62,771 nt of DNA, filler included, from Chrysochromulina tobinii (GCA_001275005.1; 7 parts of 7 records of this genome joined end to end with filler, not necessarily neighbours in it); one strand, 5' to 3'. Positions 17,136 through 60,414 are shown, numbered from the whole stretch's first letter. The notes: generated by a model not told the origin, from the letters alone. Numbers and translations: made by a program.

Positions 17136-18987
17136 TCAGCTGAGCCGCACGAGTCGCATGAACGAGTCACCGACGGGCTCTCCATCCTCAGCAAGGGCCG
17201 CCGCGCTCGCCAGCAGCACGAGCGCCGTCCCGAGCACGCACGCAATCCCCATCGCGAGATAGCTGCTCCCTCCGCCACCTCGGCGCCGCTCCTTCTCCTT
17301 GCCGTAGTAGTCTTGACGAAACCCATTCTCATCCGCGTCGCGGCTGTCGAAGCCGAGCTCCATCGCACGCTCGTAGTCGCGGCCGCGGTTGGGGCCGCCG
17401 CGCCGGCGCATCTCGTTGGGTCCGACCGACGCGAGCTCAGCGTCGGTCGGTGGGCGCGGCGGTGGCGGCGGCTTCCTATTTTGGGTTGAGGGCGCGACCG
17501 GTTTCGTCAGATCGGGTTCGTCATGCGGCGCGAGGTACTGGCGCACGTCCCACACCATGCGCTTCCGGTCCTCATATGGCGCCCGATCAAAGTCCGGATT
17601 CACTTCGGCGGCCTCTTCAGGTGGCACGTTGCTCATCAGCTGCGCCCACTCCCTCTCCAACTGCCGTTCGGAGGGGGTCCACGCGTCGAACTGAGCTTGG
17701 TCCTCAGGAGACAGCATCGACCCCTCCTCCTCCTCGCCCTCCTCGCCCCCGCCTAGGAGGTACGAGCGTACGTCGACGAGGATGCCCCACTGCTCCTCGG
17801 GCGCCTTGCCCCTCAGCTCGCCCTCGAGCCTGCTCGAGAGGTTCTCAGGCGTCATCAGTCAGTGGTAGTCAGTGGTAGTCAGTGGTAGTCAGTGGTAATC
17901 AGGGGCACTCAGGGGCACTCAGCGGCACCGGATGAGGTCCTCCTCGACGCACAACGACTGGACCTGCTGAAGCAGCTGCCGCAGCGCGTCCGGGCCCAGG
18001 TAATTGCCGGGGTCGAGGTCGTCTGCGCCGTTCTGAGCATCGCCCTCCTCCTCCTCCTCGCCCTCCTCCGTAGCCTCCTGCGGGTTGCGAAGGTACTCGA
18101 GTACATCTACCAGCACGCGCCCTCGCTCTTGCACGTCACGACCAGCCAACTCGGCATCGAGCTCCGCGTACCTGATGAAGGAGACCATCAGGGGCCATCA
18201 GTGGCAATCGATGGCAATCGGGGCGACATGGCGTACCTGATGAGCGAGGCCATCCGGCATGCACTCAGCGACGCACTCCGCAGGGCACTCAAGATTCGTC
18301 AAGATTCGCAGCCAGATTCGAGCTCCCGAGCTCTGCGTACTGTCCCTCGAGGTCCTCGCCATCAACGGTCTCACTGAGTGCCTGGCGCGCGTCGTCGTAC
18401 AGCTGCTGCACCTCCTCCTCCGTGAACGGCTCCTCCTCCTCGACAGCCTCGCGCAAGTCGTCTGGGTGCGGCAGCTCCTCGATGGCAGCGTCGTCGAGCT
18501 CCGCCGCACCCGCCGCGCTCATCGACTCGTCCTCGGAGATGAGTGCGGCCGCTCGCGGTGTGCGCGCCTGCGACGGCGGGTCAAAGGGCAGCGACTCGAG
18601 CGACTCGCCCACTGCCTTGCGCGTGCTGTTCGCCCAGCTGCGCACGGCCTCCCTGACCTTTTCGGCGGCAGCCTCCTTGACGCTGTCGGCAGCGCTGCCC
18701 TCGGCGACGTCCAGGTCGACCTCGAGGTCGTCGAGCATCTCCAGGCTCAGATCTGGCAGGTGCACGCTTCCTTTGACCAGCGCGCCGTTGACCGTGCCCG
18801 AGAAGGGCACCACAACCTCGAGCGAGTAGATGGGGTAGGACTTGCCCTTCCGGTCTCCGATGGATACCTCACCAGACACCCAGCTCGAGAGGTTATCCTC
18901 GACGAATAGCCCACTGCCGAGGTTGAGCCCCCTCAGCTTTTCCTTAAGCGCCGAGGTCGCGTAGCCAGTGATCGTGCGCTCTCCCAT
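17136..18987 (-). CDS. Aha1 N-terminal-like domain protein with acidic repeats and C-terminal TM; spliced
   Basis: ERTITGYATSALKEKL..VSGEVSIGDRKGKSYPIYSLEVVVPFSG..KGSVHLPDLS resembles Aha1_N. Introns 18172-18340 and about 17856-17925. Confidence 0.65.
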
Positions 18988-19632: not shown

Positions 19633-21146
19633 TTAGTAGGGCGTGGTGGTGAGGGCCGAGAGGGGCGTGTCCGTGTACGCGATCTTGTACACGGTCGTGA
19701 AAAAGGGGAACTCATGCTCAAGGCCCTTCATCTTGAGGATGTGGTTGACCTCCTTGGCCGTGAGAGTTCCCTGCAGCTTCTGGCCGCCGAGCAGCTCAGC
19801 CTCGATCTGGTCGAGCGACTTGGTCTTGCCGTGCTTGGCGAAGGCCTCGGCGCACTTGCGGTTGCGACCGCCGTAGCACGTGGTGATCAGGTCCGCCACA
19901 CCGCACGACTCCAGGAAGGTGTCGTCGCTGATGCCGGCCGTGGGGTAGAACATTTTGCAGAACTTGACCTGCCGAGCGTTGTGCCGAGCGCGAGAGGGGA
20001 CACGCGCAACTCGCTTCGTCAGCACACAAGGGAGAGGGGTAGAAGAAGGAGGAGCCGAGAAAGGGGAGGCCGACGCGCTCCTGCCTTGCATGCAGACGCT
20101 CACCACGGCGCCCCGCTCCCCACAGCAAGTGCCAAAGGGGATGCAGCGAGCAGGGGATGCAGCGAGCAGGGAAGGCAGAGAGCAGGGGAGGCAGCGAGAA
20201 GGGAGGCAGACAACAGGGGATGCAGAGAGCAGGGGAGGCAGACAACAGGCTGCCGAGAGCGTTCGAGCGCCGCCTCGGTCACCATCTCCTTGAGGCCGAT
20301 GCGGATGATGGCGGCCTTGGTGTTGCCGCCCATGCCGAGGCCGTCAACGAAGCCCGCGCCGATGGCCACAATGTTCTTGAGCGCGCCGCACAGCTCGACC
20401 CCCACCGTGTCCTGAACGGTACCGACCTTGAGCGAGAAGTCATCATAGGCAAGCTTGAACAGCTCGCCGTTCTTCTGGTCACGGTAGCCGATCGTAGTCT
20501 CGCAGAAGGCGTCGGAGGCCATGTCGTTGGCCACGTTCGCACCCATGAGCACCGAGCAGTCCGCGTTCAGCTCCTTGCGCAGGATGTCCGAAATGAGCAC
20601 GATGCCGTTCTCGTCAAAGTCGATGCCCTTGATGGCCGAGAGCACCTTGACACCCGGCGCCGCCGCCGCCTTGATCTTAGGCATCATGGGCTTGAGGAAC
20701 TGGTGGGGAAGGCAGAAGCAAATCATGGTGGCGCCCTTGGTCGCGCTCTCGAGGTTGGGGTCGGCGATCACGTTCTTCGTGAACTTGGCGCCCTTGAGGT
20801 ACTTGACGTTCTCGTTCGTCTCGTTGATGATCTGGGTGAGCGGCTTGCCGTCGATCATCTCCTCGTGCACGTACATGCGCACCTCGTTATCGAACACGTC
20901 GTGACGCAGCGCGTTGCGGCCGAGGATGCGCACGAGCGCCGAGCCGAAGTTGCCTGCGACACGCGATCCACCCCTCCACGTGAGTTGAGTGAGCTGACGC
21001 TAAGTGTCGGCCCCGCCGCCTGCGGCCGCTCCGCTTTTAATGTGACGAGCGCACGCACCCGAACCGACCATGCAGATCTTCTCCTTTTTGGTGCTGTACG
21101 CGCGGCTGAGCGCGCGCTGCTGGACCTTCGCCATTCGAGAGAGCAT
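19633..21146 (-). CDS. GPD1: Glycerol-3-phosphate dehydrogenase (NAD+), 3 exons, basic N-terminal presequence
   Basis: [73 protein letters not shown]. Introns about 20955-21058 and 19970-20282. Confidence 0.95.
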
Positions 21147-21354: not shown

Positions 21355-21770
21355 GTCAAGTCAAGTCAAGTCATGTCGAGTACATTGTACTTAGAAAATT
21401 TGCACTCCACACACACTATGCAAGTGCGTATTTTGAACGGGCAGTAACAGTGTCGTAGCACCCGGTTGTCTCGTGCGTCGCGAACGTTCACAAGTTCAAG
21501 TTCAAGTTACTACATAAACAACAGACAACCTAACGGAAGCCTATCGAATGTGCTCTCGAGGCTGAACTTGAACTTGATCTTGAACTACGTTCACACCCCG
21601 CAACGGCAGCACACATCTGAGCGGGCAGTAACAGTGCCGTAGTCGGAGCGCACGGCGAGGCGCACCGGATGCCACGCGGTGTGACGTGAGAACGGCGGAC
21701 AGCCCTTGTTGTTTGACCTTTTCCGCTAAACGATGTGTGTATTCTGAGCGGGCAGTAACAGTGCCGTAGG
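21355..21770. repeat. Cluster of short direct and inverted repeats (possible transposon relic)
   Basis: CGGGCAGTAACAGTG(T/C)CGTAG three times (about 21438, 21622, 21749); (TTCAAG)n facing its complement (CTTGAA)n at about 21490-21585. Confidence 0.6.
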
Positions 21771-23298: not shown

Positions 23299-26076
23299 CT
23301 AGTCGTCCACGTCGCACAGCCCGGGCAGCCGTACGCCGTCCGGTGGCGTGAGCTGTAGCGCGCCGCTGCGGCCGATCCACATGTACGGCACGACGTGCTG
23401 CGCAAACCACTCGTGTGTGATCTTGCCGCTGCGCCTGTGGTCGTCCCAGTTGTCATTGGTGACCACATAACACTCGTGCCCGAGGCGTAGCTGCAGCTTA
23501 GCCCACACGATCTGCGCATCGTCGTCGTCGCGCCGCGGCGGTGTGAAGGTTATGTAGTGCTGTGAAGCATCGAGTCGCTCGGGGGGGCGCCGTGGTGAGC
23601 GCGTGCACACAAGGCAGATCATCAGTGGCAATCAACGTACCTGCCAAGCGTCGAGTCGCTCCGCGTTGAAGGCCTTGAGCGCGCCCGTGCGCCCGCCGTC
23701 GCGCACCCACTCGACGAGGAAGGCCATCGGCAAGTATTCGACCCCCGCCGCACGCGCCTCCTTCGAGTCGTTCGCCTTGAGGACGGCGGCAATGGCCGCA
23801 ATCACGCCGAGGGCGAGCAGAGGGGGCGACCTCTCGCCCGCGCGCGCGCGTACTTCGTCAAAGGCGAGGCGCTTCGGGTTCGTCAAATCCTCGAACTCGG
23901 GGTCAACGGTGCTTCGGTTGCGTCCGACATTCATGCCGTCGATGACCACGACGATCGTGCGCCTCGAAGGCCGCGCTGTCCCCGCTTGGGCGCGTTCGTT
24001 CACGACGGGCGTCGCCGCCGTCGTCGCCGCAGCAGGCGGCACCGCCGCGCGGTGGCTAGTAATCCGTTGCACCTCCTCTTGATGCAACGAGCGCGCCAGC
24101 TCCTCGTCGCTGATCGTCATCCCGGCGGCGCCGGCATTCAAGTGCTCACCACGGCGCCGCTCCTCGTCGCTGATCGTCATCCCGGCGGCGCCGGCATTCA
24201 AGTGCTCACCACGGCGCCGCCCCTCGTCGCTGATCGTCGTCCCGGCGGCGCCGGCATGCAAGTGCTCACCACGGCGCCGCCCCTCGTCGCTGATCGTCAT
24301 CCCGGCGGCGCCGGTGGCGACGACGGATCCGCGACCGCCGCCGCGCCCGCCACCGCGGCCGCCATCGCTGCGACCACTGTGGCTGCCGCCAAGAGCGCCG
24401 CCACGAGCACCCCTTCCTTTGCCCGCGCCGCCAGGGGCAGCGGCTGCGGAGGGCGCGGGCGCAACCGCCGACCAATCGAAAGCCATGGTGGACGGCCCTG
24501 CGCTAGGGAGGGTGGACGGCCCGTGCATGCAAGTGCTCACCACGGCGCTAGGGAGGGTGGACGGCCCGTGCATGCAAGTGCTCACCACAGCGCCCTCGGC
24601 GCTAGGGAGGGTGGACGGCCCGTGGCTGCCCTTGCCGTGGAGCCGCGCATGCTGCCGTCTCTCGTCGGCGCCGTGGTGAGCACTTGCATGCTGCTGCCGT
24701 CTCTCCTCGTGCATCTGCGCCTGGAGCTCGAGCGCGGCATGCACGTGCTCACCACGGCGCCGCGCCTCGGCGATCTGCGCCTGGAGCTCGAGCGCCTCGC
24801 GCGCCTCAGCTGCTCTCGTGGCCGCCGCCGCCGCCGCCTCGGCTTTCGCCGCCGCCGCCGCCGCCGCTCTCGCGGTCCTCGCGGCCTCAGCCTCCTCTCT
24901 CGCTTGCACCTGCCGGCGCAGCTCCGCTGCCTCCTCGGCTTGGCGCGCATGCAAGTGCTCACCACGGCGCAGCTCCGCTGCCTCGTCGAGCTCTCGCGCC
25001 GCCGCCGCCTCAGCCCGCTGTGCCGCCTCCTTGATCGCCGCCTCCTCGGCTTGGCGCGCATGCAAGTGCTCACCACGGCGCAGTGCCGCCTCCTCGGCTT
25101 GGCGCGCGAGCTTGCGCACGTGCTCAGCGCGGCGCTCACTCTCGAGCGCCTCCGCACGCATGCGCTCGACCTCACGAAGCCGCACGAGCTCCTCCTGCTG
25201 GTACCGAAAGGCGAGCGCATCGGCCTCGCGCTGCTCGGCCTCGCGCCGCTGCGCATGCAAGTGCTCGGCTTCTCGCTGCTCGGCGTCGAAGAGAGCCTGC
25301 AGCCGGCGCGCCTCGCGCTCGTCTGCGTCGAGCGGCGGGTCGCTCTCCCACTGTGCATGCAAGTGCTCGGCTTCTCGTTGTAGCCGGCGCGCTTCGCGCT
25401 CGTCCAGGTCGAGCGACGGATCGCTCTCCCACTGCGCATGCAAGTGTTCGGCTCCTCGCTCGTCGGCGTCAAACGGCGGGTCGCTCCCCCACGAGTGCAG
25501 GTCTGGTACGGCCGGCGCTGCGGAGGAGGACGAGGCTGCCTGTGAAAAGGCACGAGATCCCACAGGCACGAGGCTCTGTGGGATCTGCGAGAGCGACGCA
25601 TGAGGCGCCATGGGCGGCGGCGTCGAGGACGCGTCACGCAGGGAGGCCTCGAGAGCGCGGCGCAGCTGCTCCTCTTCCTCCCACTCGGCCACCGGCCGCG
25701 GCGGCGAAGGAGGCCGCGCTTGGTTGAACTGCCGGAGCAGCGCCTCCTGCTGCGAGTACGGATCGAGCGTAGTCAGCGAGAGGCTCGCCGCGACTGCCTC
25801 CTGCTGCGAGTACTGGTCCAGCGTAGACAGCGTGAGGCTCTCGGCGATGGCCTGTGCGATATCGTCGCGGCCCGCAGCGTCCACCGATGGCTGGCGCTCG
25901 AGGCTCGCGAGCAAGGCCGCATTCAGATCGGCATCCTCATGCGCCTGCGCACCATCGACACGCGCGCGCGGAGGCTGCTCGGCGACGCTCGCTGCCAGTG
26001 CGCGGCGGAGATCTTCGTCCTCGTCGTTGTCGTCATCATCAACGTCGGCCGCGGTGTTATCAGAGCGAGTCCCCAT
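23299..26076 (-). CDS. UIM-containing protein with C-terminal Regnase/Zc3h12a-type NYN (PIN) ribonuclease domain
   Basis: UIMs: EDEDLRRALAASV, EDADLNAALLASL, DDIAQAIAESL, EEEQLRRALEASL. NYN motifs: VVIDGMNVG, TPPRRDDDD, YVVTNDNWDDH. GT-AG intron 23560-23640 joins the frames (WQ|HYITF). Confidence 0.8.
24104..24313. repeat. 60-bp coding tandem repeat, about 3.5 copies
   Basis: Encodes GAAGMTISDEGRRRGEHLHA on the minus strand. Confidence 0.9.
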
Positions 26077-26140: not shown

Positions 26141-28354
26141 TCAGAGGAGGATCTCTCTCGGCGTATGCCTTGTGGTAGTACCCGCGGGAGTTGTGACGGT
26201 GTACATGAGGCTCCGCGACAAGAGCGCGCTGGGTGACATCCTGCCGCCGTCGCCACCGACGCCGGCCCCGTTCCTGTCGCTGCTGGGGCTGCTCCTGCCG
26301 TTCGCGGCGCCATGCTCGCTGCCGCCTGCGTCCGCCCCCGTCGACCAGCCGCCGCTCCTTTCATCGCCGCCCGTCTCGATGATCCACGCGTGATGTTCGG
26401 CGAGCCGTCTGGCTGGGTTCTCGAGCGGTTTGCTCCCCGTGATCCAGCGCCAGCATTGACGAAGCCCGCGCCACGAGCAGACCGACCAGAGCGCCTGGTA
26501 CCACGTCTGCTCGGACTCGAGCCCTTTTTGGACCACGTATGAGAGGCCCAAGGCGCCCATGGGTGCCCGCGGAGGCGCCGTCGTGGGCAACGCCGTCGGG
26601 CCAGCCGCGGCGCTTCGCGTCGTCGTGGGCATCGGCAGCTTCCTTGGCGGCACGATGGTGCCGAGGGCCCCGGCCGCCGGGTCGGTCTCCACAAGCAGAT
26701 CGTCAGGAGGCACGCCGTTTGGGTACAGGCGCGCCGTGTTGAGCAGCAGGGCGAGCTCGAGGTCGGCTAAGAAGGGCGGGAGGGCGAAGACCTCGAGCAG
26801 GTGGGGGGTCAGCCAAAGAGCCCACAGGAGTAGCGTCAAGAGTTTCGGCAACTCGCCTGAAGGCAGAGGCGATCGGAGGCGATCGGAGGCGATCAAGGCG
26901 ATCAGAGGCGATCGTGGCGGCACTCAGCAGGAGCCTAATTAGGTCACTCACAGGCCTAATTAGGTCACTCACGGAAGAAGAGGTCCCAAAATGGCAATCA
27001 GAGGCAATTAACGACACTCACGGAAGAAGAGGTCCCAAAATGGCCACGCGTTCACCGGATCGGTCAGGTACGCGCCCACTCGATAGAGCTGGCAGAGCAA
27101 GGCGACTTGCATGCAACGGCAGCCTACGGCCTGAGAAGGACGGCCGCACGGTCGGAAGCCGGTTACTCCCGGACCGATGAAGAGGAAGGTGAGCCGATCG
27201 ACGAAACCGTAAGGCCAGCCGTGGGCGAGCTTCACACCCTCACCGCGCATCGGCTTGCCTGATGAGGGAGACAACTTGCGGTCCGTCAAAGGCACTCATC
27301 GGCACTCATCGGCCATCATCAGCCATCATCAGCCATCATCAGCCATCATCAGCCATCATCAGCCATCATCAGGCGTGCCTTCGCGCCATCGGTCACGCTC
27401 CATCTTTCGCAAGATGAAGTTATGATAGATCAGCCGGTAGCTGAGGTAAACGCTCGTGCCGTACCAGAGCCAGTCGGCGAACAGCGTGAGCGAGCGCCAC
27501 GGCGCGCAGAAGAAGAGCGCGCCGCCGAGGGTGCCGAAATAGACCATCAAGATAGCCCAGGACGACGGCGTGAAGTCGGTCAGAGTCTTGAGCTGCGCGT
27601 GGTACACCTGGCTGAGGTAGTAGCTCACGTAGAGGCAGCTGCTCTCGACGGTTTTCTTGAGCGCCGTGTCGCGCTCGAGCTTGTCGCGCGACAGGGTACT
27701 GCATGCATCGAGAAGCTGCACTCGCATCGCGTCCAGCTGACGGGAGGCTAACGTCTCTGTGGGATTGCGTGGCTGGCCACCGGTCTCGAGCCGCTGGTAG
27801 ATGGCGAGCCACTGCTGCATCGCCTGCAGCGCGATCGCGATGAAGGCGAAGTAGAGGAACATGGCCACGAGCAGCGCGAAGATCACGTCGTTGAGGAGGT
27901 AGAGCAGCGTCTCCGCATCAGGCGGCATGCGCGGGTGGCATGAAAGTGATGTCTGCATCGGGATGGCGCTGGCGTTGGCGAGCGACGCCGGGGCATGGAC
28001 GTCTGAGATAGATAGATAGATCTCCACGCGAGGCCACCGGCGCGCGGTTTCCGCGAGGACGTCGAGCAGTCCCGTGCGCGTGGCTATCCAGCTCATAATC
28101 GGGAGCGTTGCGAGCACAGTCATCTCGCCTTGGAGCCGACTCCACACGAGAAACTTTAGCTGCACCTCGTTACTTGAAACGCCCGGCGCGGCCCCGTCCT
28201 TGGGCGGAGAGAGCAGGTGCGTAATCGATCGGCGCGCTGCATCGAGGAGCAGCACGAGGAAGACCACGCCGAGCAGCATGGTGAAGTGAGCCAGACCGTA
28301 CTCCTCCTCTGTGAGAGGCCACTTTGAGGTGGTGTAAGGTTCGGCCGCTGGCAT
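26141..28354 (-). CDS. MLO-like multi-pass membrane protein, spliced
   Basis: VVFLVLLLDAARRSITHLL..WSRLQGEMTVLATL, LLNDVIFAL, YYLSQ..LTDFTPSSW parallel MLO family helices; further hydrophobic exons at about 27020-27240 and 26141-26857. Confidence 0.5.
27292..27371. repeat. Intronic 10-bp tandem repeat (AGCCATCATC)n
   Basis: About 8 units seen directly. Confidence 0.9.
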
Positions 28355-29874: not shown

Positions 29875-31016
29875 CTACGACGCAACGCTAGCCCCCATGC
29901 CCCAATCACGGTAGACGTGCGCCCTTTCAAAGATGAGACGGGGTGCAAAGCGCCGCCGGAACGCCCGAATGCGGCGCGTGGCATCTGCAAGCGCCCCTGT
30001 GCCCATCGGTCCGAATGAGCTATAGCTGTGAACAAGGGCCTCATACGCCGTGGCGATAGCGCTCATGTTGTCATAGAAGCTGATGCCCAGGCCAGCAAAC
30101 TCGGCCTCGTCCTTGGGGTGTGAGCGTTCAGAGAGGACCAGCCGGCCGGCGAGTAGGGCTTTGGAGACCTGATGATGGAGGCAATCAGAGGCACTCAGAG
30201 GCCTCTCAGAGGCACTCAGTACGGATACCCTGAGCGTGATCGTGATAATGGAGGCAATCAGAGGCACTCTCTCAGAGGCACTTGAGAGGCACTCAGTACG
30301 GATACCCTGAACGTGATCGGGTTGTGCGAGTCGCCACATCCCTTGTGCAGATTGAGCCAGATGGCGTGCTCGCGCAAGAGGCGCTGGTAGCTCTCATCGT
30401 CCCAGGCACGGAACGTGTTGGTCAGCTTCTCGCCGACCAGCAGCCCCTGTAGCTCCTTGAAGCACGCATGCCGCGGAGGCCCGTCGCGCACGTTGCCAAA
30501 GAACAGGAGCGCTCCGGGACGCACCATCGGAAGTGGCACTCGCTCCGTTGGGAGAGCGTACATGCTCGCCGCGCCGAGAGGCACGTAGCGCAGCAGCGGA
30601 GCGGTAGGCGCGCTCGAGCACGCCTCGAGATTGTGCCAGGCGAAGTCCCACATCTCATCTACAGCATAACGGCCTACCCTACGTGATGCACACCGATGCT
30701 CAGGCTCACATTGGTAGAAGACGCGTCGGACTCCACGCTGGCCGAGCTCAGCCCACGGTGTGGCGGCATCGGCAAAGCCCCACCCGACCCATATGAGAGC
30801 GTCACCCGCGCGAAGCGTGGACAGATTGCCCTGATAGGCTGCGCTGTGCCTGCGGCGTACACCCTGACCGTAAACGACAACCGGCGGCTTCGAAACGCTA
30901 TGAAAGCCATCCATGAGGGTAGCGACAACCTGCTCGTACATGTACGCGTGCGCCGGCGTGTCCATGCTGTGCCAGATCATCACGAGTGAGGGCGGAGGCC
31001 ATGAATGGCCCGACAT
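29875..31016 (-). CDS. Putative GT-B glycosyltransferase-like protein, 2 exons
   Basis: VFYQCEP, DEMWDF, LLFFGN, IWLNLHK..ITFR|VSKALLAGRLVLSERS; intron about 30169-30306. Confidence 0.55.
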
Positions 31017-32918: not shown

Positions 32919-35900
32919 ATGTCAATCCACCCGTCCACACGCCTCCTGGTGAAGCTGACGACGCACCCGAGCAACTTTGGAGTGGACCCGGAGCCCCTTG
33001 ACTGGGGCAACCGCGATCCGAAGAAGCGCGGGCCGGTCGTCGCGACCGTCTCGAAGCCGGGAATGCGGAACGCCATCGGGGCGCACTCGGGCACGTACTG
33101 TGTGTACCGCGCGGTCGCGCTCGCGGTGCAATCGGCACCAGCCGACTTCCGGCCCGACTTCACCAACACGCTGCCGCCGGTTAAGATCGGCCCCTTCGAG
33201 AGCTGGTTCGACACATCGAAGATCGCCTCGCTCGACCCATGGGGCCACGTGCCGCAGTCCATCTTCGGCGACCGCCTCGCGAACGGGACGCTCGACATCC
33301 GGCCGACGATCTCGGTGACCAAGTCGCACCTCGAGCTCCCCGAGCTTCAGCTCGCCGTCAAGAACGGCACCCTCAAAAAGGACGGCACCGTGATCGTCGA
33401 CACCGTGGGTGCGTTCGAGAGCTCGGTGGTCGTCACGAAGGCGGCCGTTGAGCCGGTCTGGTACCTGCCCGAGGTGGCGAGGCGGTTCAAGTGCGACGAG
33501 ATGCAGCTGCGTCGCACCCTCTACGAGCAGACTGGCGGCATGTTCCCTGAGCTCGTGACGCGGAACGATCTGAAACTCTTCTTACCTCCGGTGAACGGCA
33601 TGACGGTCTACATCATAGGCACAGTCGAGTCCATCCCGGATGTGCGAGAGCCGCCGCGCTGCTGAGTGGATGTGCTGAGTGGATGTGCTGAGTGGATGTG
33701 CTGAGTGGAACCCTGATCCACCCTGATCGACCCTGATGGAAATGGCAATTACCTGCTCCACCCTGACCCTGTTGGCTTCGGATGTCAGGTGAGCAAGCCG
33801 CTCGTGGTGCGCCTCCACGACGAATCGGCAGACTCGGACATTTTCAACGCGGATGCTTCAACGTGTCGGCCGTACCTGATCCACGGCATCGTTGAGTGCG
33901 TGCGCGCGGCGCAGGCCGGCGGCGCCGGCCTGATCGTGTACAACCGCGCGGAGGGCAACGCCCTCGGAGAGGTCGCCAAGTTCCTCGTGCACAACGCACG
34001 CAAGGTGTGGGCGAGCCTTGACGAACCCTGACGAACCCTGACTAATTCGCAGCTCCTCGTGCACCTTGCACACAAGGTGCGGCCCACGCCGACTCGGTCG
34101 GCGTTCAGAGTGCCCTCGATTGCAACGGACGAACCCGTACCAACCCTGACGAACCCTGACGAATTCGGATGTCCCCGGGCAGGTGCACGGCGACTCGGTC
34201 GACACTTTCTACGATCAGCAGAAGAAGGTGGCAGGCGCTGACGACGCTCGGCTGTACGAGCTGCTCCCCGACGTGCTGCATTGGCTGGGTGTGACGCAGA
34301 TCGATAAGTTCGTCTCGCGATCGGCGGCCAAGGTGCACCTTGATGACCCTTGATTGCGGCGGACGAGCCCGCCGCGGCCACTGATGGCCTGCCTGATGGC
34401 CTGCTTGATGGCCTGCCTGATAGCCTGCCTGAATGCGCCGCAACACAGGGGCACGCCGTCGAATCTTCCCTGACGAACCCTGACGAACCCTGACGAATTC
34501 GGGTCCCGGGCAGGTGCACGCCGTCGAATCTTCGGGCATCAGGATAGTCGAGGTGACCGGTCTTCCCGAGCGCTTCGTTCCGCGGGCCGCCACTGTTGAG
34601 TCGGCGGCCCGGTCGCCGCTCGCCGGCCCCGTGAAGCTCTCGCCCAAGCGCGCCATGCTCGACTCGGCGGGTCTGCCGGCCAAACGCCCTCACCTCCCCG
34701 ACTCTCTGGGCGAAGTGGGGGCCCCGCCACCACCCCTCGAGCTCAACCGCCGTCGGATCGATTTGAAGCGGCGTGTGGTGCTCACGACGCATCCGCTCCA
34801 GTATGGATCTCGGCCCGCCCAGATTGTGTGGGGAGCTCCTTCCCCACAGGCGCGTGGGCCGGTCATTGCAACTTTGGTGCGCCCTGAGCTGCGCAATGCG
34901 ATCGGTACCCACAACGGGCCGTACGCCATCTACCGCGCGGTTGCCGCCGCCAAGGGCGCCTTCGAGACGACGAAACGGTCCGACCTCGCATTCACAGCTC
35001 CGCCCGTGAAGATCGGCCCGTACCCTTCGTGGTACGACCCGAGCAAGATCGCATCGATCGACCCATGGGGGCATCTGGCTGGCTTCCAGGACGGGCCTGG
35101 CGCAGCGATGGCGGCCGCGGGCGCGGAGATCCAGCCGACGATTGCCATTACGGAAGCGACTCTTCGCATGCCCGAGATCATCGACGCGATGAAAAAGGGA
35201 CGGCTCAAGGCGGACGGCAAAATCTTGCAGGTGCGCCTTCATGACGCCTCTGATTGCGCCTTGATGGCGCCTTGAATGGCGCCTTGCTTGTGACTCTGAT
35301 TGCCATCCTGCAGGAGGACGGCACTCTCTCATGGCATGCTGATTGCCTCCCTCATTGCATGCTGATTGCCATCCCGCAGGAGGACGGCACTCTCTCAGTG
35401 GTCAAATGCGCCATCGACCCTGTTTGGTTCCTACCGGGCATCGCCGAGCGGTTCAAGCTCGAGGAGGCCAAGCTGCGTCAGAACCTCTTCGAGCAGGTAC
35501 GGAGCACGAGCCCTTATTGCATGCTGATGACCTCCCTTATTGCATGCTGATGGCCTCCCTCTCATTGCACGCCTCTGCGAGCAGACTGGCGGAATGTTCC
35601 CTGAGCTCGTCACGCGGAACGATCTGAAAGTGTTTCTGCCCCCCATTGGGGGATGCACGTGCTACATCATCGGCGACCCGGCGAGCTTGCCTGACACCTC
35701 GATACGGCTGTGCGTGCGCGTGCACGATGAGTGTAACGGTTCGGATGTCTTCGGCTCGGATATCTGCACGTGCCGCCCGTACCTTATCCACGGCATCGAG
35801 GAGTGCGTCAAAGAAGCACAGGAAGGCGGTGCCGGCCTCATCGTCTACAACCGCAAGGAGGGCGTGCTCTTGGGAGGTGACCAAGTTCATGGTGTACAAC

Positions 35901-39557: not shown

Positions 39558-39657
39558 NNNNNNNNNNNNNNNNNNNNNNNNNNNNNNNNNNNNNNNNNNN
39601 NTTAATTAATTAANNNNNNNNNNNNNNNNNNNNNNNNNNNNNNNNNNNNNNNNNNNN
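39558..39657. other. Artificial contig linker
   Basis: N/TTAATTAATTAA/N, 100 bp. Confidence 0.99.
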
Positions 39658-42600
39658 ACCCTCGCCGCCACCGTCGCCACCGCCTTCGCCACCACCGTCA
39701 CCGCCACCTTTGCCGCCACCATCTCCACCGCCTTCGCCGCCACCATCACCTCCGCCCATGCCGCCCCCTACACCGCCACCCTCGCCTCCACCCTCACCGC
39801 CGCCTCCATCGCCACCGCCATCCCCACCTCCGCCCTCGCCGCCTCCCACTCCACCAGGCGGAATGTCTGTGCTCGTCGTCTCGGCCACCTTTACAATTGC
39901 AGGTGATCCCTCCGACTTCACCGGAGCCCTCCAACTGCAGTTCCGCACCTCTCTTGCCAGTCTGCTGGGCGTGAATACTAGCGACATCACAATCCGCGTC
40001 ACCGCGGGAAGCACCATCATTCAGGTCACCATCATGGTGCCGTCGCTCGCCTCCTCCCAGACGACTGTGTCGACGCTCCAAGGTGACACGGCCCAGCTCT
40101 CGGCCAGCCTAAACGTGACCATAACCTCGGCCACCGGCGTGGGAGCGAGTTCCGCCGTGCTCGCGGCCCCCTCACCACCACCGCCGTCGCCTCCGCCACC
40201 GTCGCCACCGCCGCCCTCGCCGCCTCCACCCTCGCCGCCGCCTCCCTCGCCTGAGCCATCTCCACCACCGCCGCCAAGCCCAACGCCACCACCTCCGTGG
40301 CCTCCACCGCCCTCCCCTCCGCCACCTTCACCACCACCGCCTTCGCCGCCGCCTCCATCACCACCGCCTCCTTCGCCACCGCCACCCTCGCCTCCTCCTC
40401 CATCACCGCCGCCTCCATCACCACCACCACCGCCGAGCCCCTCAACTCCCGAGCCCTCGCCTCCGCCCTCGCCTCCCCCTTCCCCTCCCCGCCACTCCCC
40501 GCCTCCGCCCTCACCTCCACCCTCGCCTCCGCCCCCATCCCCGCCTCCTCCATCACCACCACCCTCACCGCCCCCGCCATCTCCGCCTCCACCCTCGCCT
40601 CCACCCTCGCCCCCCCCACCGTCACCTCCTCCACCGTCTCCACCGCCATCTCCGCCTCCACCCTCGCCTCCTCCGCCGTCACCGCCGCCATCTCCGCCTC
40701 CATCTCCACCGCCGTCACCACCACCATCACCACCTCCATCTCCGCCTCCGTCACCGCCTCCAGTTCCACCGCCATCACCTCCGCCGTCACCACCGCCTTC
40801 GCCGCCGCCTTCCCCGCCGCCCTCGCCGCCACCATTCCCACCGCCATCGCCACCACCGTCGCCGCCGCCATCGCCTCCACCCTCACCACCGCCCTCGCCA
40901 CCGCCCTCGCCCCCACCCTCGCCACCTCCGTCGCCACCTCCCTCGCCACCGCCGTCACCGCCGCCGCCATCACCACCACCACCCTCGCCTCCCCCTTCCC
41001 TCCCCGCCATCTCCGCCTCCGCCCTCACCTCCACCATCGCCTCCGCCCCTTCCCACCTCCACCTTCACCACCACCCTCACCGCCGCCGCCATCTCCACCA
41101 CCACCCTCGCCTCCACCCTCGCCACCTCCACCTTCACCGCCACCGCCGTCTCCGCCACCGTCTCCTCCTCCACCGTCGCCACCCCCGCCCTCGCCACCGC
41201 CGTCACCGCCGCCGCCATCTCCGCCTCCACCCTCGCCTCCACCCTCGCCCCCTCCGCCGTCACCGCCTCCACCCTCGCCGCCGCCATCACCGCCACCACC
41301 CTCGCCGCCCCCGCCCTCACCGCCGCCGTCACCGCCGCCACCGTCGCCGCCTCCACCGTCGCCTCCACCCTCGCCCCCTCCACCGTCACCGCCGCCTCCG
41401 TCTCCGCCGCCGTCCCCTCCATCGCCGCCGCCGCCCTCGCTGCCTCCCTTGAGTCCGGGTGCAACATACAGATACGAGCTCCTGTCGCAGATGAACCTGC
41501 GTTCAATCGACGGGTCGCTTTTGAATGCAGAAATCTTCATCTACACTGACTTGCAGAACAGGTTCAAGTCCGCCATGAGTGTTCTGCTGCGGGTCAGCCT
41601 CGGCAACGTGCATGTCCGGTCAGTTGCAGCCGTCACGCCCACGGGTCGACTTCGGCAACTGCAGATGACTCAGATAGCGGTCGATTATACTGTGAGCTTC
41701 CCAAACGAGACAGCTGCCACGGCAGGCATGAACACAATGAGTGGTTCGGCCTTTGACATTCAGGCCGGCTTGATAGCCGCAGGCTTCAATACAACTGTCG
41801 TTTCCGTTGCCGCGCCCTTTTTGACGGCGCAAGCGTATGACGCTCCTTCGCCGCCCCCACCATCACCCCCGCCATCGCCACCGCCACCGTCCCCGCCGCC
41901 GCCTTCTCCACCACCATCACCACCACCATCACCACCACCATTGCCACCACCATCACCACCGCCAGACCCGCCATCACCGCATCCATCGCCACCGCCATCG
42001 CCACCGCCACCAAGCCCACCACCACGTCCACCGCCACCCTCGCCACCACCCCCCTCGCCACCGCCACCCTCGCCACCGCCACCCTCGCCACCGCCACCCT
42101 CGCCTCCGCCACCGTCTCCACCTCCCTTGCCACCACCACCTTCGCCTCCACCCTCACCTCCGCCACCACCGTCGCCGCCACCCTCACCGCCGCCACCGTC
42201 CCCTGCTCCGCCACTCGCCGTCATGAATCGCCGGCAAGTACCACGCTTGAGTGCCAATCAGAGTTCAACGCATGAGTCTCACGTGGCGGCGAATTGCATC
42301 GACGATGATCTGAGCACCATGTGCCACACGAATCGCGGCCCCAATCCGTGGCTCTCTATTCGAGTGCCAGGTGGCACCCTCGCTGAGCCTCTCTCAACCA
42401 TTCAGTATGTGATCATCTACAATAGGGTGCCGTTGGCTGAACGGCTAGCGCCATTTCAATTATGGGTCGGCTTGTCCGACGGCGACTACGATTCGAACAC
42501 TTCCAGTGCCTGCCCCGTCCACGACCAAGTGGCCTCGGCGGGGCCGTTCGCGTTCAGTTGTCAAGATCGTGCTGGCACCCATGTATCAATCGTCCTGCCG

Positions 42601-45600
42601 GGCAACAACCGCATCCTCCACCTCATGGAGGTCAAACTGTTCTCGGAGTTCACCTCGCCTTCTCCGCCCCCGCCGTCGCCGCCACCACCTTCGCCTCCTC
42701 CCCGACCGCCACCTCCGTCGCCGCCGCCGCCGTCGCCTCCGCCTCCTATCCCACCTCCGCCCTCACCCCCGCCGCCGATGGGACCTTCCCCTGTACCGCC
42801 AGTTGCAGACATGTTCGCCGTGCCGCTGCTAGGTGCGCAGATGTCGTCGACACATATGCCACACGTCGCAACAAACTGCATTGATGGCGTGCTGGACACA
42901 TTCTGCCATACCGCACTTGAAGGAAGCTCTAATCCGTGGCTGTCCATCCGAATCCCCGGTGGCACACCCTCCGAACCGCCATCGTCGATCCAGCAGGTTC
43001 TCATCCACAATCGACAAGACTGCTGCCAGGACCGCATGCTCCCCTTCCAACTATGGGTGGGGGTAGCTGCCGGCGAATACAACTCCTCCACGTCTGTGTC
43101 ATGCTACGTGCACGACCGGGTCGTGACGGTACAACCGTTTACGTTTGATTGCCGGGGGGCCAACGGCACTCACCTGACCATCGTGCTGCCTGGCGAAGGC
43201 CGCATACTCAATCTGGCTGAGGTGCAAATTTTCTCTCCCCACTTCTCGCCCTCACCACCACCACCGTCACCGCCACCACCGTCACCTCCCCCGTTGCCTC
43301 CTCCACCATCTCCGCCACCGCCTTCGCCTCCACCACCGTCGCCGCCACCGCCATCACCGCCTCCGTCACCACCACCACCGTCGCCACCCCCACCCAGCCC
43401 GCCGCCACCATCGCCGCCGCCCCCGAGCCCTCCGCCGTCACCGCCGCCGTCACCGCCGCCTGCTCCTCCTCCTCCGTCACCCCCGCCGCCATCGCCCCCT
43501 CCATCACCACCTCCTCCATCTCCACCACCACCTTCTCCCCGTCCTCCATCTCGACCACCGCCATCTCCCCCGCCGCCGTCTCCCCCGCCGTCATTGCCGC
43601 CATTGCCGCCGCCGTCGCCGCCACCACCCTCCCCTCCGCCCTCTCCGCCACCATCGCCACCTCCACCCTCACCGCCACCTCCCTCCCCTGAGCCCTCGCC
43701 ACCGCCGCCGCCAGCCCCGCCCCCCCCAGAGCCATCGCCCCCTCCGCCTTCCCCTCCGCCACCCTCACCACCTTCGCCAATACCGTTGCCGCCGCCACCC
43801 TCGCCTCCACCACCATCACCACCACCATCTGCGCCACCGCCTCCCTCGCCATCTCCACCATGCCTGCCACCTGTGCCGCCTCCCTCACCACCGCCGTTGC
43901 CACCACCATCCCGACCCCCCACATCTCCACCGCCATCTCTGCCGCCATCCCCACCCCCTCTGCCGCCGCCGCCCTTGCTGTCTTCGCCGCCCCCCTCGCC
44001 ACCGCCGCCGCTCTCGCCGCCGCCACCCTCGCCGCCGGCGATGAGCGTCGTCGACTTCGCCCTCCGACTCGCCGGCGACGTCTCCTCCTTCACCCCGAGC
44101 GTGCGGGCCGAGATGCAGAGCGCGATCGCGGCCTGGGCGGGCGTCGAACCATCGGCGGTGATGGTGACTGTCACGTCGGGCAGCGTCATCGTCGGCGTGC
44201 GCATCCAGACACCCACGACGATGGCGACCTCGGTGCAGTCGGCGATGGCGAACGCGACGAGCAGCCCAAGCAGCGCGACCACCATGCTCGCGAGCGTCAC
44301 CGGCGTCTCGATCGCCGTGCTCGCGGTCGTGACGGCTCCCATCGTCGCAATCATCGTACCTCCGCCGCCGCCGACCCCACAACGGCCGCCAGGCGCACTG
44401 AACAGCGCCGGCGCCGACAAAGACGAAGGCGCGCCGAACACCATCATCATCATCGTCATCGTTGGCGTGCTCGCGGCAATTCTTGTGCTGCTGTGCTGCC
44501 TGGCAATGGTCTGCTGGTGGAGGCGCAGAGAAGTCGAGCTGCTGCGCAAAGACGTCGACCTCTGCAAGACGTCCGCGAACACGGTCTCCGAACACGAGCT
44601 TCATCCACAGCCCTCCATCCCCAGTGGCAGCGGCGGCGGCGCTGGCCGCGACGGTGGCGTTGGCATCGAGATGAGCGGTCGCTTCGAGCGTCAGTCCTCC
44701 GAGACGGAACGCTCGTCCCGCGCAGACGGTGCCGAGGGCGGCGCACGGCCGGCAACGGCGGGCGTCATCGACGCATCGGGCAGCAACACAAATCGCACGC
44801 GGACAATGGCGGAGCGCTCGCGCATGCAGCAGGACAAAGTACGCCAGCAACAGGAGGCGGCGCGGCAAGCGAACCCGCCGAAAGCCAAACTCGCGAGGTT
44901 GCTATCGCCATCAAAGTTGCCATCGCCGGCAAGGTTGCCATCGCCTGCAAAAGTCAAGGCGACCTCCGCGTCGATGATCGACTCCAACATTGTGAGCTGG
45001 AGTGACCTGAGACTGCTCGATCCTCTAGGAGCGGGTAGCTTCGGTGAGGTGCGCGTGGCCGTGTACAACTCGACACGATGCGCGATCAAGAGCCTACAGG
45101 CTGCGACAGCGCCGGGGGCGCTTGAGGAGCTCCTGCAAGAGTTTGAGCTCACGATTCGCCTGCACCATCCAAACGTGCTCCTCACCATGGGCATTGCACA
45201 CAACAGTGCCGACGGCAAGACGGGGATTCTGATGGAGCTCATGCCTGCGTCGTTGCTCGATTTGCTGCATCACCATCGCCAGCGCGAGCAGCTCGCCACG
45301 TGGGAGGCATCCCTCGTCCTCATCGCCCTCGATGTGGCAAAGGGCATGACATACCTACATGCGAAGGGTGTGGTACATCGAGACCTGAAGCCAGGCAACG
45401 TTTTGCTCACGGAGCACTGGGTTGGCAAGGTGGCCGACTTTGGCACCGCACTCTCCAAGTACCATTATGCCGGCGAGGCGGAGGGGCCCGTGGGCACACC
45501 GCCCTACATGGCTCCCGAGGCGATTGCACTCACCTCGGGCGCGAAAGAGAAGCCCACCGACGTGTGGAGCTTCGGATGCCTGCTCGCACACATGGGGACA

Positions 45601-52990: not shown

Positions 52991-53090
52991 NNNNNNNNNN
53001 NNNNNNNNNNNNNNNNNNNNNNNNNNNNNNNNNNTTAATTAATTAANNNNNNNNNNNNNNNNNNNNNNNNNNNNNNNNNNNNNNNNNNNN
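52991..53090. other. Artificial contig linker
   Basis: N/TTAATTAATTAA/N, 100 bp. Confidence 0.99.
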
Positions 53091-53095
53091 GCGAT

Positions 53096-55475
53096 ATGCA
53101 GCGAGAAGCGAGAGGCAACGTGTCTCTGCTCCAGCGGCTCAACGCTGCGCTCCAGCCGCAAGCGCCGAAGCAGACGATCAGTGTGATGGGCATCGATGAG
53201 GCGACGGTGCTGCTCGAGGTTGACGGCGTCTCTCCAGTCTGGAAGTGGCCAGAGTTCGGCTCGCTGGGCGCTGACCAGGATCAGGACCATCAGCCGCGGA
53301 CCGTGCTCCATCCGGAGCCATGGGACTATGATAACATGCACCACGACCCGTTCAACCTGATTCGCTTCTACCTGCCGTACCTCGCGCCGTTCAGAGAGCT
53401 CGATTCCCTCTTCTTAGGTGATGACGACATCGTCATTCAGAAATCCATCTCCATGCTCGAGGTACCCATGGGTGATGGCCTCATCATCGCTGCGACGTGC
53501 AACGGATGGCTGTGGGCCGAGGACTGCATGCGCAACGAGCCGTACTACAATGGAAAGGGCTGGTTGGACTACCCGGCCACGTATCTGGGCAAGGACAAGG
53601 CACACGGATATAGCGGGTGCACGCAGACGGCTTCGGAGAGCGGGAACCGCATCTGCCAGAAGGATGAGTTTGCGGAGACGGTGCTGCGCTGGACCCAGAA
53701 GTTCAACGGCAAAGAGCTTGACGTCAACGTTCAGCCGCGCTGGAACTTTGGCGTGTCGCGTATCAACCTGACCGAGTGGCGGGCGCAGAACATGACTCAC
53801 GTCTTCGATAACTACATGCGCGCCAACTACGAAGCCAAGCTGATCCCCGAGACGTCCCTCGCGTTCGGCCTCGGGATCCCGTACTTCGCGTTTGCGGACA
53901 AGATTATGTGCTGGAACGACGTTGTGGGCGACCCGGCCTTCGTAGACGGCCTCGGGTACATCTCTAAGGCCGACTTGAAATTGAACAACCTGAACGCGTC
54001 GAAGTTGCTTGGAGAGGCGACCGTGCTCCACTGGTCCGGGCGCAACAAGCCGTTCGACCCAGAGTCCGAGATGGACCTCGAGCTCTACAAGCCGTTCGAT
54101 GCCGTGCAGGAATACTATGTTGCGAGGCCGGGTACGCAGTCTCTGGAGCAAGGGGCTGGCCTTCACGCCATCGTCAGGCAAGTTCCCGATGCGTCGAAGC
54201 AGACCGCTCGCGCGCTCTTGTACGCAGACCCTTTTGCGGGAGCGGAGTGGTTCTTGGAGCTGCTCGATCAGACGCCTGACGTCTGTGCGTCGGGCTCGAC
54301 CGGCAATCCAACGGTTGCCTTCGCAGGAGAGAGCTTCATCCCGCCCCACTTCGAGGCCGTCGAGAACGCCATCCCAGTTTGCGCGCAGAAGCGCGCCTGC
54401 CTCTGGAGCTTCATCGCAGAAAACGTGCCCCGGTACGTGGAACAGCGTCGCAGCTGGTGCCAGAGCACTCACAATGAAGGTATCGAAAGAAAGGGTACCT
54501 TGGCAGAGTTTCAGGTCCACGGAATGCACGGCGAAACGCTTTGCTCTTGGACCGATCGCTTGCTGACCATGTACCCCAATCGCACCAGCTACTCCGACCT
54601 GGGCGGGATCCAGGCGCTCTGGAACCTGTACGAGCACAACGTCTTCTCCATGGCAACGGATCTCGTCCCGTGCACACAGGCGTGCGGGTACAAACCCGTC
54701 CGCATGCTCAAGTTCATGCGCGCGTGGGCCCAGCCGATGATGAACGGAAGCGAGCCGGCTTATTCGTGGCGCGATAACGGCGATGCGCCTATGACCTTTG
54801 TGGGCGACTTTGCGGGCGAGCACTGCGATGGCGAGGCCCTGCCGGGAGGAGGCTGCGACGGCAGCGAGTCTTACTTGCCAAAGATCAACTGGGACGCATA
54901 CAAGGTGGTCGAGCTCACGCGTTGGAACCTTCTCGATCGTTGCCTCGCACAGACTGAATTCGCAATCGGGATAACTGAAGACCCAACTGTCACTATTCAG
55001 CCCGAACGCACCTCAAACATAGCGGAAGGCGCCGTCGACTTAGACGACCTGATGCGCTGCATCAGATACTCCGGCGCGCAGCGGGACGCGGACCTTCTAC
55101 GACTCAACGTCTATTCTGGCGAACGCCTCGCCGATTGGATGACGCTCCCCTATGAGGTATGCGCAATGCCAAGCTTTATCCAGGCGTGTGTGGATGCCAC
55201 GGTGGCCCACGTCAGCCAGGCGCCCTTCATCCCCCACACCGTGGCAGCCAGCAACGTCGACTCCACCCTTGCCGAGTTATTGAAGCGTCGACGCTGGCGA
55301 CGAGCGAAGGGGAGTCTATTGACATCTCGCCGGCGCCCCCTTGTTCAACCTACCTCGAAGTACGTGGAGACGCTGGACGCAAATTGGTTGTCAAACTTCC
55401 AAGAGGACAGCTTCGTCTCAGCGCTCCAGCGGCGGAGAGAAAGAGGTGGTGAAGAAAATGGAGAATTAGAGGCGC

Positions 55476-55514
<39 letters not shown>

Positions 55515-58500: not shown

Positions 58501-60314
58501 CCATTGCGGCCCGCCGCCGCCGCCACCCGCCGCAGAGCCGCCTTCGACGATCCTACCACCATGGGATGCGGCCGCTGAATTACCACGCGAGAGACTCTAC
58601 TTGGCCGACGAGATGTCGAAGCTAGCTGGAGGAACGGTGGAACCTCCCTGGCGGCACCGGACCTCATTTTCGAAGTGCGGGGAGGAGAGAATGGTCACCA
58701 GCGAAGAATCCGCAGCTGAGGTCGGTCTCCTCTCGACGTGCGATCCAGAGTCGTGCCTTGTCATGTCGTCTGGCTGCGGCTCACGTCCCGAGTGCCAGGG
58801 CTGCGGCTCGCTGTGCCATGGAAGCTCCTCGTTGGACGCCAGTGCGTGGTCCTTGGATGGGCTGGCCACAGGGCTCTCAGTGTATGGTACGGACCCTATT
58901 GGCACCGTGAAGCCAGCAGAGAACCGCTCGATGTGGCGCAATGTCAACCTCGTCGTCAGGTGGTCGGAGTTTGAGCCGAAACCAGACGAGTTCGACTGGG
59001 CCGCTTTCGACGCGCTGCTGCTCGACGTTACGAAGAGGAATGTGCCGTTTGCAGTGGGGATCACCTTTCTCTCGGGTCCGAACTACTACCCTCAGTGGCT
59101 CTTTGAGTCGCCGTTCAATGTGACCAAGTATGTACAAGTCTGTGGCCAAGGGCACCGTGCGGTACACTTGAGCACTGGGGTGTACCGCACGGCGCCTTTG
59201 CCCGCAGACTATGGCGCTGACCCAACCCGGTGCGACGAAACTGAATTCGCGGTACCCAGCTTCTACGATGCCGCCTACTTGGCTCGCTACAAGCGCGCGC
59301 ACATGGCGCTCGCGGCGAAGCTCAGTGATATGCGCATCATCAACAGCCAGCTCAGGCTACTTTACTTGCAAGCGTCCCTCGGTACAGGCATCCAGAACGC
59401 GCCGGTCTACTTCCACCCAATTCGAACCGAAGCGGACTACGTCTGGACGGATCCTCAGGGCCAATCGACGCCCACGGATGCAAGATGGAATCGCTGCGGC
59501 AGCTGCGAATTCGATGCGTTCGCTCCGCCTCGCAATGTGTCCTTGGATCAGTTCATGTGCCCCAGCGGTGCTACCAGCACAGGTCTCATCGTGTCTCGGC
59601 GGCCGGCCTTCGAGGAGTACGCCCAGAGCGTGACCGCATTCCTGTACCATACCGTTTATGCGTCGCATCGCGAGGACGCCGGGCTGCGGCTGATGGTGAC
59701 GAGCGACGATCCGAAGACATGGGTTAACTTCGCGAACGGAATGAATAGTGCCAGCCAGACTGATAAGCGGATGCAAGATGTGCAGCTGTTTACCAATGAT
59801 TGGCTCGATACTAATGCGCCCGGCACGTGGCTGATGCGCAACAAAGAGGGCGAAGGCGCCGGGCTGTCAGGCGAGCGCACGCGCGTCGCCCACTCAATCC
59901 TTAACGTCTTCAGGGTGACGCAGGATGGACCCGTGCGCGCCCGCGCCGACCTGGACAAGTTCTGGTGCTGGACAGGCGAGGAGGGCAGCCGCGGACAGCT
60001 GGGCGCGGAGCCGGTCGCTCCAAGCTGCGTGATGCAGAACTGGCACCTGTATGCTGCGGCCATGTGGGCGCTCACGACCCGCATCGACTACTGGAACATT
60101 CCGCTCACAGCTGCAAAGCAGCAGCTGACGGGAACTGACTTTGATGGCGTGTGGAGGTTTCTGAATCGCTACAGTGGTGTCCGCTGGGGCTGGCAGTCTC
60201 CGGGGGCTTGGATTGGCTTCCGGGACGGCCTCGACACGCTCGACGCCGAGCGCTTCCCCGAGGCGGAGTTCGGCGCGCTACCCCAAAACTGGCGAACGAT
60301 GTCCTTGCGTACAT
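53096..60314 (+). CDS. Giant multidomain glyco-enzyme: GT8, sulfotransferase-like x3, YSY/KKCK repeat, GH-A-like domain; incomplete
   Basis: GT8: IRFYLPYL..GDDDIVIQ..WNFGV..INLTEWR..VLHWSGRNKPF. Sulfotransferase: FHHVPKTGGTT and MRDVLPHRVSFF. GH: VRWSEFEPKPDEFDW..YPQWLF..PSFYDAAYLARY. Confidence 0.8.
55770..56350 (+). repeat. Coding repeat DSYSYD(D/E)E-GGG-KKKCKPKPGKPCP / RRKKPG
   Basis: About 8 degenerate purine-rich units. Confidence 0.9.
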
Positions 60315-60414
60315 NNNNNNNNNNNNNNNNNNNNNNNNNNNNNNNNNNNNNNNNNNNNTTAATTAATTAANNNNNNNNNNNNNNNNNNNNNNNNNNNNNN
60401 NNNNNNNNNNNNNN
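60315..60414. other. Artificial contig linker
   Basis: N/TTAATTAATTAA/N, 100 bp. Confidence 0.99.

Follow-up and report, generated by a model that had tools for sequence, protein, structure and literature searches.

How introns originate without an evident transposon is an old question, and in the accessible part of one review most gained introns are described as untraceable to a source (PMC3443670). The closest described systems include Introners, or ILEs (Roy et al., bioRxiv 10.1101/2020.10.14.339549; Gozashti et al. 2025, PMC12130899), whose target duplications, according to the accessible sections of these papers and of PMC9860276, measure 3–9 bp and are fixed within a family. Introners of marine Chrysochromulina MAGs are given a 4-bp duplication, no TIR and a donor of their own, with a 70-bp example, in the available text of Gozashti et al. 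2022 (PMC9860276). Excerpts of two further sources describe introns of Daphnia pulex attributed to staggered-break repair, which have exon–intron repeats of 4–12 bp and are polymorphic in populations (PMC4202315; review PMC3443670), and a tandem genomic duplication model in which both splice sites come from a duplicated AGGT (PMC3443670). The C. tobin genome paper, in the portion available, mentions introns once (PMC4580454). A literature survey of partial coverage, with most subscription journals outside it, yielded no description of the motif reported below or of long-duplication introns in haptophytes.

The window analyzed here is a stretch of 62,771 nucleotides from Chrysochromulina tobinii (GCA_001275005.1), in which seven parts of seven records are joined end to end with filler. 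A 25-bp motif in this window, found also in metagenome contigs, accompanies predicted introns that resemble Introners in being many, similar and recent at unrelated sites (at least 287 distinct copies in at least 133 loci), in showing recent gain with empty sites (locus L072 filled and L011 empty, together with protein alleles), and in carrying one splice site while drawing the second out of the target duplication, in either arrangement. In contrast to the duplications fixed at 3–9 bp in the Introner literature available, duplications here are variable at approximately 10–50 bp (median 26, range 0–50, in 98 introns of class A, defined below, among the matches listed). There are also no fixed ends or, by inspection, TIRs, inserts being 37–81 nt long with graded 5′ ends and a variable linker and pyrimidine tract; copies descend from neighbors and carry host bases; and one cassette gives both arrangements plus in-frame coding inserts. 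As in Daphnia, new introns are flanked by a direct repeat of the adjacent exon and are polymorphic, whereas the repeats are longer and what is inserted is one splice cassette that recurs and can be traced to a neighboring intron. As in the tandem duplication model, duplicated exon enters the intron and provides a splice site, but only one site comes from the duplicate, the inserted cassette giving the other and a likely branch point.

Rickettsia palindromic elements are short repeated non-coding DNA of bacteria, measure ∼100–150 bp, form a strong palindrome, and sit in frame within protein genes, where more than one frame and either orientation is used. Set against these features, the present motif shares in-frame insertion, five open readings (translation being predicted here) and both orientations, and differs in being 25 bp long, weakly folded (−5.1 kcal/mol for 25 nt) and mainly intronic, in coming with a host duplication, and in having no exact match in a prokaryotic genome collection. 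The analogy holds for the outcome only. A first-pass annotation of this DNA had proposed either a micro-mobile element analogous to these elements or a templated insertion motif from which introns as well as new protein sequence are built. The templated insertion is supported by what follows; the mobile element and its analogy are not, given unfixed ends, the lack of a strong palindrome, and copies derived from neighbors in cis.

Motif copies in a coding exon

With up to three mismatches allowed, the motif had 10 matches in the window, with 0.00 expected and none in 100 shuffles. Nine start at 24134, 24194, 24254, 24525, 24570, 24737, 24947 and 25058 (plus strand) and 24667 (minus strand), exactly where nearly full copies had been annotated, and the tenth occupies 20088–20112. 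Looser matching added 23586–23610 (minus strand, four mismatches) and three 5′-half copies at 25253, 25355 and 25436, previously listed as partial. Twelve coding copies, 11 antisense and one sense, fall within a minus-strand exon of 812 codons (26076–23641). The three readings earlier reported for one ORF recur inside this exon, full copies encoding RRGEH[LV][HN]A (six), AVVSTCM (two) and HASAHHGA (one), and all three half copies give AEHLHA. The encoded protein comprises a UIM, a low-complexity linker and an NYN domain (Zc3h12a-like) split by an intron; the Pfam matches to UIM (E = 0.0027) and PF11977 (E = 0.0063) are each below the cut-off. Exon 1 (23641–26076, minus strand), which contains the weak UIM, is an open frame throughout with alleles 87 to 98% identical, while exon 2 (23299–23559, minus strand) encodes the C-terminal NYN half, with homologue P0003 contiguous over the junction.

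Every near-full coding copy (9/9) lies between two direct repeats, 18–42 bp long, of the host sequence, a feature absent from the first-pass annotation, as compared to repeats of at least 15 bp at 4.6% of 394 random window positions. The seven distinct periods in the exon (60, 45, 54, 42, 60, 51 and 48) are all multiples of three, a regularity that is partly circular within long ORFs. Copies 24134, 24194 and 24254 (24093–24314, plus strand, antisense to the gene) belong to a 60-bp unit of duplication and motif that was then tandemly amplified, reading RRGEHL[HN]A. Copies 24525 and 24570 (24500–24624, plus strand, antisense) lie among three host repeats of 26–31 bp with periods of 45 and 54 and read AVVSTCM. 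The single sense copy at 24667–24691 (24650–24709, minus strand) has 18-bp repeats with a period of 42, is without a pyrimidine–CAG tail, and reads HASAHHGA. Repeats of 23 bp surround each of three further plus-strand, antisense copies: 24737–24761 (24713–24795, period 60), 24947–24971 (24915–24988, period 51) and 25058–25082 (25037–25107, period 48). The half copies (25253–25449, plus strand, antisense) include two within an 81-bp tandem repeat. Three of the nine full copies were re-duplicated in plain tandem from a neighbor (60-bp unit, 3.7 times; 45-bp unit, 2.1 times).

The coding copies are without usable splice sites and keep the frame, which they do in several alleles, contrary to the possibility that all copies are spliced out. 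These unspliced copies likely add new protein sequence to the NYN gene. An in-frame insert of 36 nt without the motif (25540–25575, minus strand), absent in allele P0002, contains an inverted copy of adjacent sequence and represents a local templated insert of another kind.

Introns of the host gene and of GPD1

The gene's own intron (23560–23640, minus strand, 81 nt) has its own donor and consists of a 30-nt head (23611–23640), the sense motif (23586–23610) and a 3′ end of 21 nt, acceptor AG included, that duplicates the last 21 nt of exon 1; the exonic member lies at 23641–23661 and the intronic member at 23560–23580, with a period of 81. Head and motif align with five introns from unrelated loci. 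The position of the intron is confirmed by P0003, which reads WQ directly followed by HYIT. P0003, P0004 and P0005 (contigs of 3.4–5.5 kb), as well as P0106, a more distant sequence, run over it without interruption, and the P0001, P0002, P0107 and P0125 proteins continue into it. Either the intron is possibly polymorphic, or the uninterrupted records could represent transcripts.

GPD1 of the window has 99% identity to its counterpart from Chrysochromulina parva (P0006), which places the window in a freshwater Chrysochromulina; P0006 reads KEM directly followed by VKF across a 314-nt intron (19969–20282, minus strand). Contiguous homologues thus place both motif variants annotated outside the exon, 23586–23610 and 20088–20112, in introns as claimed. 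The GPD1 intron contains an 82-nt antisense fragment (20060–20141, plus strand) made up of the motif, a pyrimidine–CAG tail and both flanks, and 77 of 83 aligned columns, flanks included, match the unrelated locus L044:3520. The captured sequence extends 16 nt past the CAG. Upstream of GPD1, a direct repeat of 21–27 bp occurs three times with unrelated spacers (21438–21458, 21622–21642 and 21749–21769; 0 expected by chance), and its 14-base core was found once in the 133 loci (L015).

Alleles of the host gene

Three homologues of the host gene (87–98% identity) differ in the motif copies that they carry. In P0002 the 60-bp site and the HASAHHGA site are both empty; the 60-bp site has one copy in P0001 and P0107 and a single empty form in the outgroup P0111. 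Comparison of orthologues, suggested in the first-pass annotation, yielded filled and empty sites (P0001, P0002 and P0111). The 24947 site is empty in P0001, and the AVVSTCM copies occur in the window only, being absent from P0001, P0002 and P0003. The 24737 copy is present in all alleles, with a tandem doubling in P0001, and the 25058 copy is likewise common to all. P0003 carries inserts of its own, including a fourth reading, MQVLTTAP, between duplicated peptides. Many in-frame gains distinguish the alleles, and the frame is kept open across independent assemblies with differing copy sets, among alleles that were found as proteins, a search in which frame-broken alleles could not show up. 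Selection at the peptide level was rejected, since five readings are used and a motif peptide occurred in only one of 50 homologues newly listed by a representative search, that one being a close allele.

Motif copies outside the window

The 354 motif matches listed represent at least 287 distinct copies in at least 133 loci (132 metagenome stretches and one viral contig), in diverse eukaryotic host genes. Exact motif matches numbered zero in a prokaryotic genome collection and one among viral contigs, and the class B head described below gave no matches in a search of the same kind; a prokaryotic or viral origin is unsupported. The analyzed set comprised 250 of the listed copies with up to three mismatches and 90-nt flanks, 37 being dropped, and a flanking duplication of at least 15 bp was present at 187 of these 250, as compared to 38 of 300 control positions. 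Of 248 listed copies (the 250 minus two redundant rows), 175 have a pyrimidine tract and YAG within 45 nt after the motif, with GT next in 137 of the 175; in most listed copies the motif stands 12–24 nt upstream of a pyrimidine–CAG acceptor.

Class A (117 copies among the matches listed) is defined by a duplication that begins at the base after AG; in 98 of the 117 its upstream duplicate starts in register with GT (90) or GC (8), so that typically the duplicated exon gives the donor and the insert the acceptor. Within this class, and among the matches listed, the duplication reached at least 15 bp in 106 of 117 copies, AG preceded the donor in 43 of 117, and predicted introns were 55–95 nt long, with no bias toward multiples of three (37 of 106). 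Of 68 cases among the matches listed that could be scored, 54 kept a continuous reading frame once the predicted intron was removed, as compared to one third by chance. In class B (10 listed copies and the 81-nt intron of the window), a 30-nt head starting at GT is followed by the motif and a duplicate of the upstream exon ending in AG. Class C comprises 64 listed copies with neither splice site, and a further 59 listed copies have an acceptor and no clean in-register duplication. A Pfam scan of 69 unjoined exon pairs among the matches listed left most pairs without a hit on one or both sides; many domains end at the donor or start at the acceptor of predicted introns, and the same single-copy profile spans the junction in one of the 69 pairs, a myosin (L100) whose match ends at profile position 370 and resumes at 372.

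Among 137 listed copies that are not exact matches, motif positions G11, C12, C14 and A15 (within GCTCA) vary in at most three, a constancy inflated by the selection of loci from metagenome contigs with an exact 24-mer. Their near invariance, together with the position of A15 approximately 25 nt from the acceptor, points to a predicted branch point. The motif is likely the conserved core and branch-point cassette of a large Chrysochromulina intron family; most pasted copies are predicted to become new introns. Its main role would be intronic, and the coding copies look like by-products. Of two candidate conserved hairpins, a stem closed by a GCAA loop was rejected because common variants break its pairing. 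In the other, a stem of positions 9–13 with 20–24, pair-keeping changes are one-sided only, and 19 of 278 listed copies carry G21A, which disrupts it.

Thirty-three listed class C copies combine a duplication of 15 bp or more with the absence of an intron signal, and only 18 of these 33 have a period divisible by three. Seven other ORFs, each 800 codons or longer, contain 12 listed class C copies in frame, with the readings ACKCSPRR, HASAHHG, MQVLTTAP and GAVVSTCM. Over the window, its alleles and these ORFs, five of six possible readings are used, and the sixth has a stop. Eleven of these 12 copies are sense while 11 of 12 in the window exon are antisense, a difference that suggests that insert orientation follows the local founder. 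The ORF of L007 (1510 codons) holds at least five in-frame copies in two readings, and long ORFs in L009, L014, L026, L034 and L075 also carry the motif in frame, mainly sense.

Evidence for gain and local copying

Loci L072 and L011 are 98.3% identical and differ by an 81-bp insertion in L072 alone, composed of a duplication of 33–34 bp starting with GT, the motif, and a pyrimidine–CAG tail. Other allele pairs have equivalent insertions carrying different cassettes. That the motif is confined to the window locus and explained by local tandem duplication, the other reservation in the first-pass annotation, is rejected by this pair and by copies in many unrelated genes.

Copies are clustered, with 6.9 per 10 kb within 0.5 kb of another copy as compared to 0.56 at 3–4 kb, and 82 of 91 neighboring pairs lie on the same strand (both among the matches listed). 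Internal variants are shared by 56 of 136 within-locus pairs as compared to 759 of 6746 between-locus pairs among the matches listed, an excess that strain differences may inflate. Of 148 listed copies, 35 have 8 nt or more of 5′ flank in common with another copy of their locus, with 13.7 expected. In two loci the daughter intron holds 6–7 bases of the parent's exon (L043, 4001 to 6535; L061, 2402 to 704), with 5-nt microhomology at the switch points and parent–daughter distances of 2.5 and 1.7 kb, respectively; in L014, one daughter copy (6355) is inverted. From the 17-nt left flank common to the two, we infer that 25058 is the probable parent of 24947. Clustering, private variants and bases from the neighbor's exon argue for copying from nearby and not for a transposon. 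An exclusively local origin is harder to reconcile with two observations: only four of 36 introns among the matches listed had their nearest insert within their own locus (0.68 expected), and the pyrimidine tract varies even between neighboring copies, suggesting that copying is imprecise or that many copies come from elsewhere. The GPD1 fragment, which matches an unrelated locus, also speaks against a purely local source.

Proposed mechanism and alternatives

The duplication–insert–duplication anatomy, the filled and empty alleles, the clustering and the carry-over of host bases are best explained by DNA-end copying of nearby copies through template switching, with exon copies that lack functional-looking splice sites and would be translated; we assign this reading a probability of about 0.6. 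A staggered or nicked DNA end would prime on a nearby motif copy by short-homology template switching, synthesize 20–80 nt, and then re-anneal upstream, leaving the target duplicated around the insert. In class A, a duplication from GT and an insert running to the template CAG would allow splicing to restore the exon exactly; in class B, including the 81-nt intron of the window, an insert beginning at the template GT and a duplication ending in CAG would restore it likewise. A class C product, with neither site or with an antisense insert, would survive only if it adds a length divisible by three that the protein can tolerate. Selection would retain exactly spliced or in-frame products, and each new copy would serve as a local template, such that the family could spread without a transposase. 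Exact splicing of classes A and B and frame survival of class C are the presumed outcomes, and splicing, branch-point use and translation of the copies are likewise presumed, on sequence grounds. Most templated inserts in the NYN gene carry the motif, although splicing cannot select it there, and random template switching does not explain this dominance in exon inserts.

The leading alternative, which we consider unlikely, substitutes an RNA template: a reverse transcriptase primed at staggered nicks would copy the gene's own pre-mRNA or released introns, in a SINE-like or retrohoming-like manner, which would yield duplications of long and variable length and place the 3′ end at the CAG of the intron. 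Class A inserts stop at CAG with graded 5′ ends, as would fit a fixed 3′ end and variable 5′ truncation, class B inserts begin at the template GT, and 21 of 98 class A junctions among the matches listed have no common base upstream of GT; a nascent transcript would, moreover, give the bias toward the same gene and strand. Selection for exact splicing alone, however, accounts for the precise ends and confounds the class A pattern, and classes B and C have no such 3′ end. Inserts of both intron classes run across the presumed branch adenosine, the GPD1 fragment continues past the CAG, and an Rfam scan of four of the 133 loci gave no match over the cassette and hence no known structured RNA, its only weak hits (two, E = 0.21) falling far below the gathering score. 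Junction sequences are compatible with either kind of template, and unspliced pre-mRNA may have served as one. A DNA template is favored over an RNA template by local inverted copies (6355 in L014; 24667 and its neighbors in the window) and by exon-to-exon copying (25058 to 24947).

Quite improbable, in our estimation, is a non-autonomous Introner of ∼70 nt, a MITE-like DNA transposon of which the observed classes would be truncated copies. Such an element would agree with a common 55-nt head and motif in unrelated genes, with a 69-nt copy at L009:4540 in which both ends are present and the flank repeat is short, and with the Chrysochromulina MAG Introners of 4-bp duplication, no TIR and own donor (PMC9860276, available text). 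The duplications are nevertheless long and variable as compared to the fixed 3–9 bp described for Introners; ends are ragged, inserts contain host bases of neighbors, and other cassettes occur in the same architecture. Two words from the motif were not found in the part of the Introner supplement searched, which may omit sequences (PMC9860276). That the coding copies are instead unrecognized introns or assembly artifacts, with no new protein sequence, draws on a donor-like GTGAG in the antisense motif and a pyrimidine–TAG in the AVVSTCM repeats and is very doubtful, as the candidate introns of 38 or 83 nt are predicted to shift the frame by 7 or 16 nt, the remaining copies have no acceptor-like tract, and the frame is open in independent assemblies with different copy sets.

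Returning to template switching at DNA ends, a more far-reaching form of it can be put forward only tentatively. Intron gain in Chrysochromulina would be self-propagating and free of transposase, with cassettes preferentially copied from neighbors into staggered breaks, each intron seeding the next along the gene and its genealogy written in the host bases carried over; the same process would continually generate protein sequence that stays in frame, in any of five readings, and could be the origin of most introns recently gained by the lineage. Source, target and failures are all visible here: alleles occur with and without inserts, a single gene can hold a parent intron and its daughter, and unspliced by-products persist in exons, which makes the process testable in a culturable alga. 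Intron birth would in this way be linked to the origin of new protein sequence. Where GEHLHA, AVVSTCM, HASAHHG, MQVLTTA or ACKCSPR appears in a gene model of Chrysochromulina, the peptide may reflect a genuine insert or an intron that was overlooked.

Other cassettes and additional features of the window

The same duplication–insert–duplication form is seen with other cassettes in the window (18166–18254, 26966–27044, 30208–30319, 34446–34533 and 35296–35397) and in many loci. These cassettes contain 10-bp repeats of the TGATTGCC or TGATGACC type and end in CCTCATCAG or CCTAATTAG. Among the matches listed, 86 of 389 spaced duplications in the loci contain the 25-bp motif, and many others contain words of the 10-bp repeats. 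The process therefore appears wider than the 25-bp motif.

In the viral contig (L001), a phage-like gene, a 670-aa frame that is presumably primase/helicase-like, has algal-type inserts: a 39-bp duplication around 10-bp repeats, followed by the motif and a pyrimidine–CAG tail (1874–2060). The contig is either a chimera or phage DNA that resides within the genome of a haptophyte. Elsewhere in the window, 39600–44100 is a long proline-rich coding tract of low complexity (PPSPPP type) with strong GC skew, and an unannotated open frame of 2443 codons at 53039–60367 includes Cys-containing repeats of 87–96 bp near 55800–56100.
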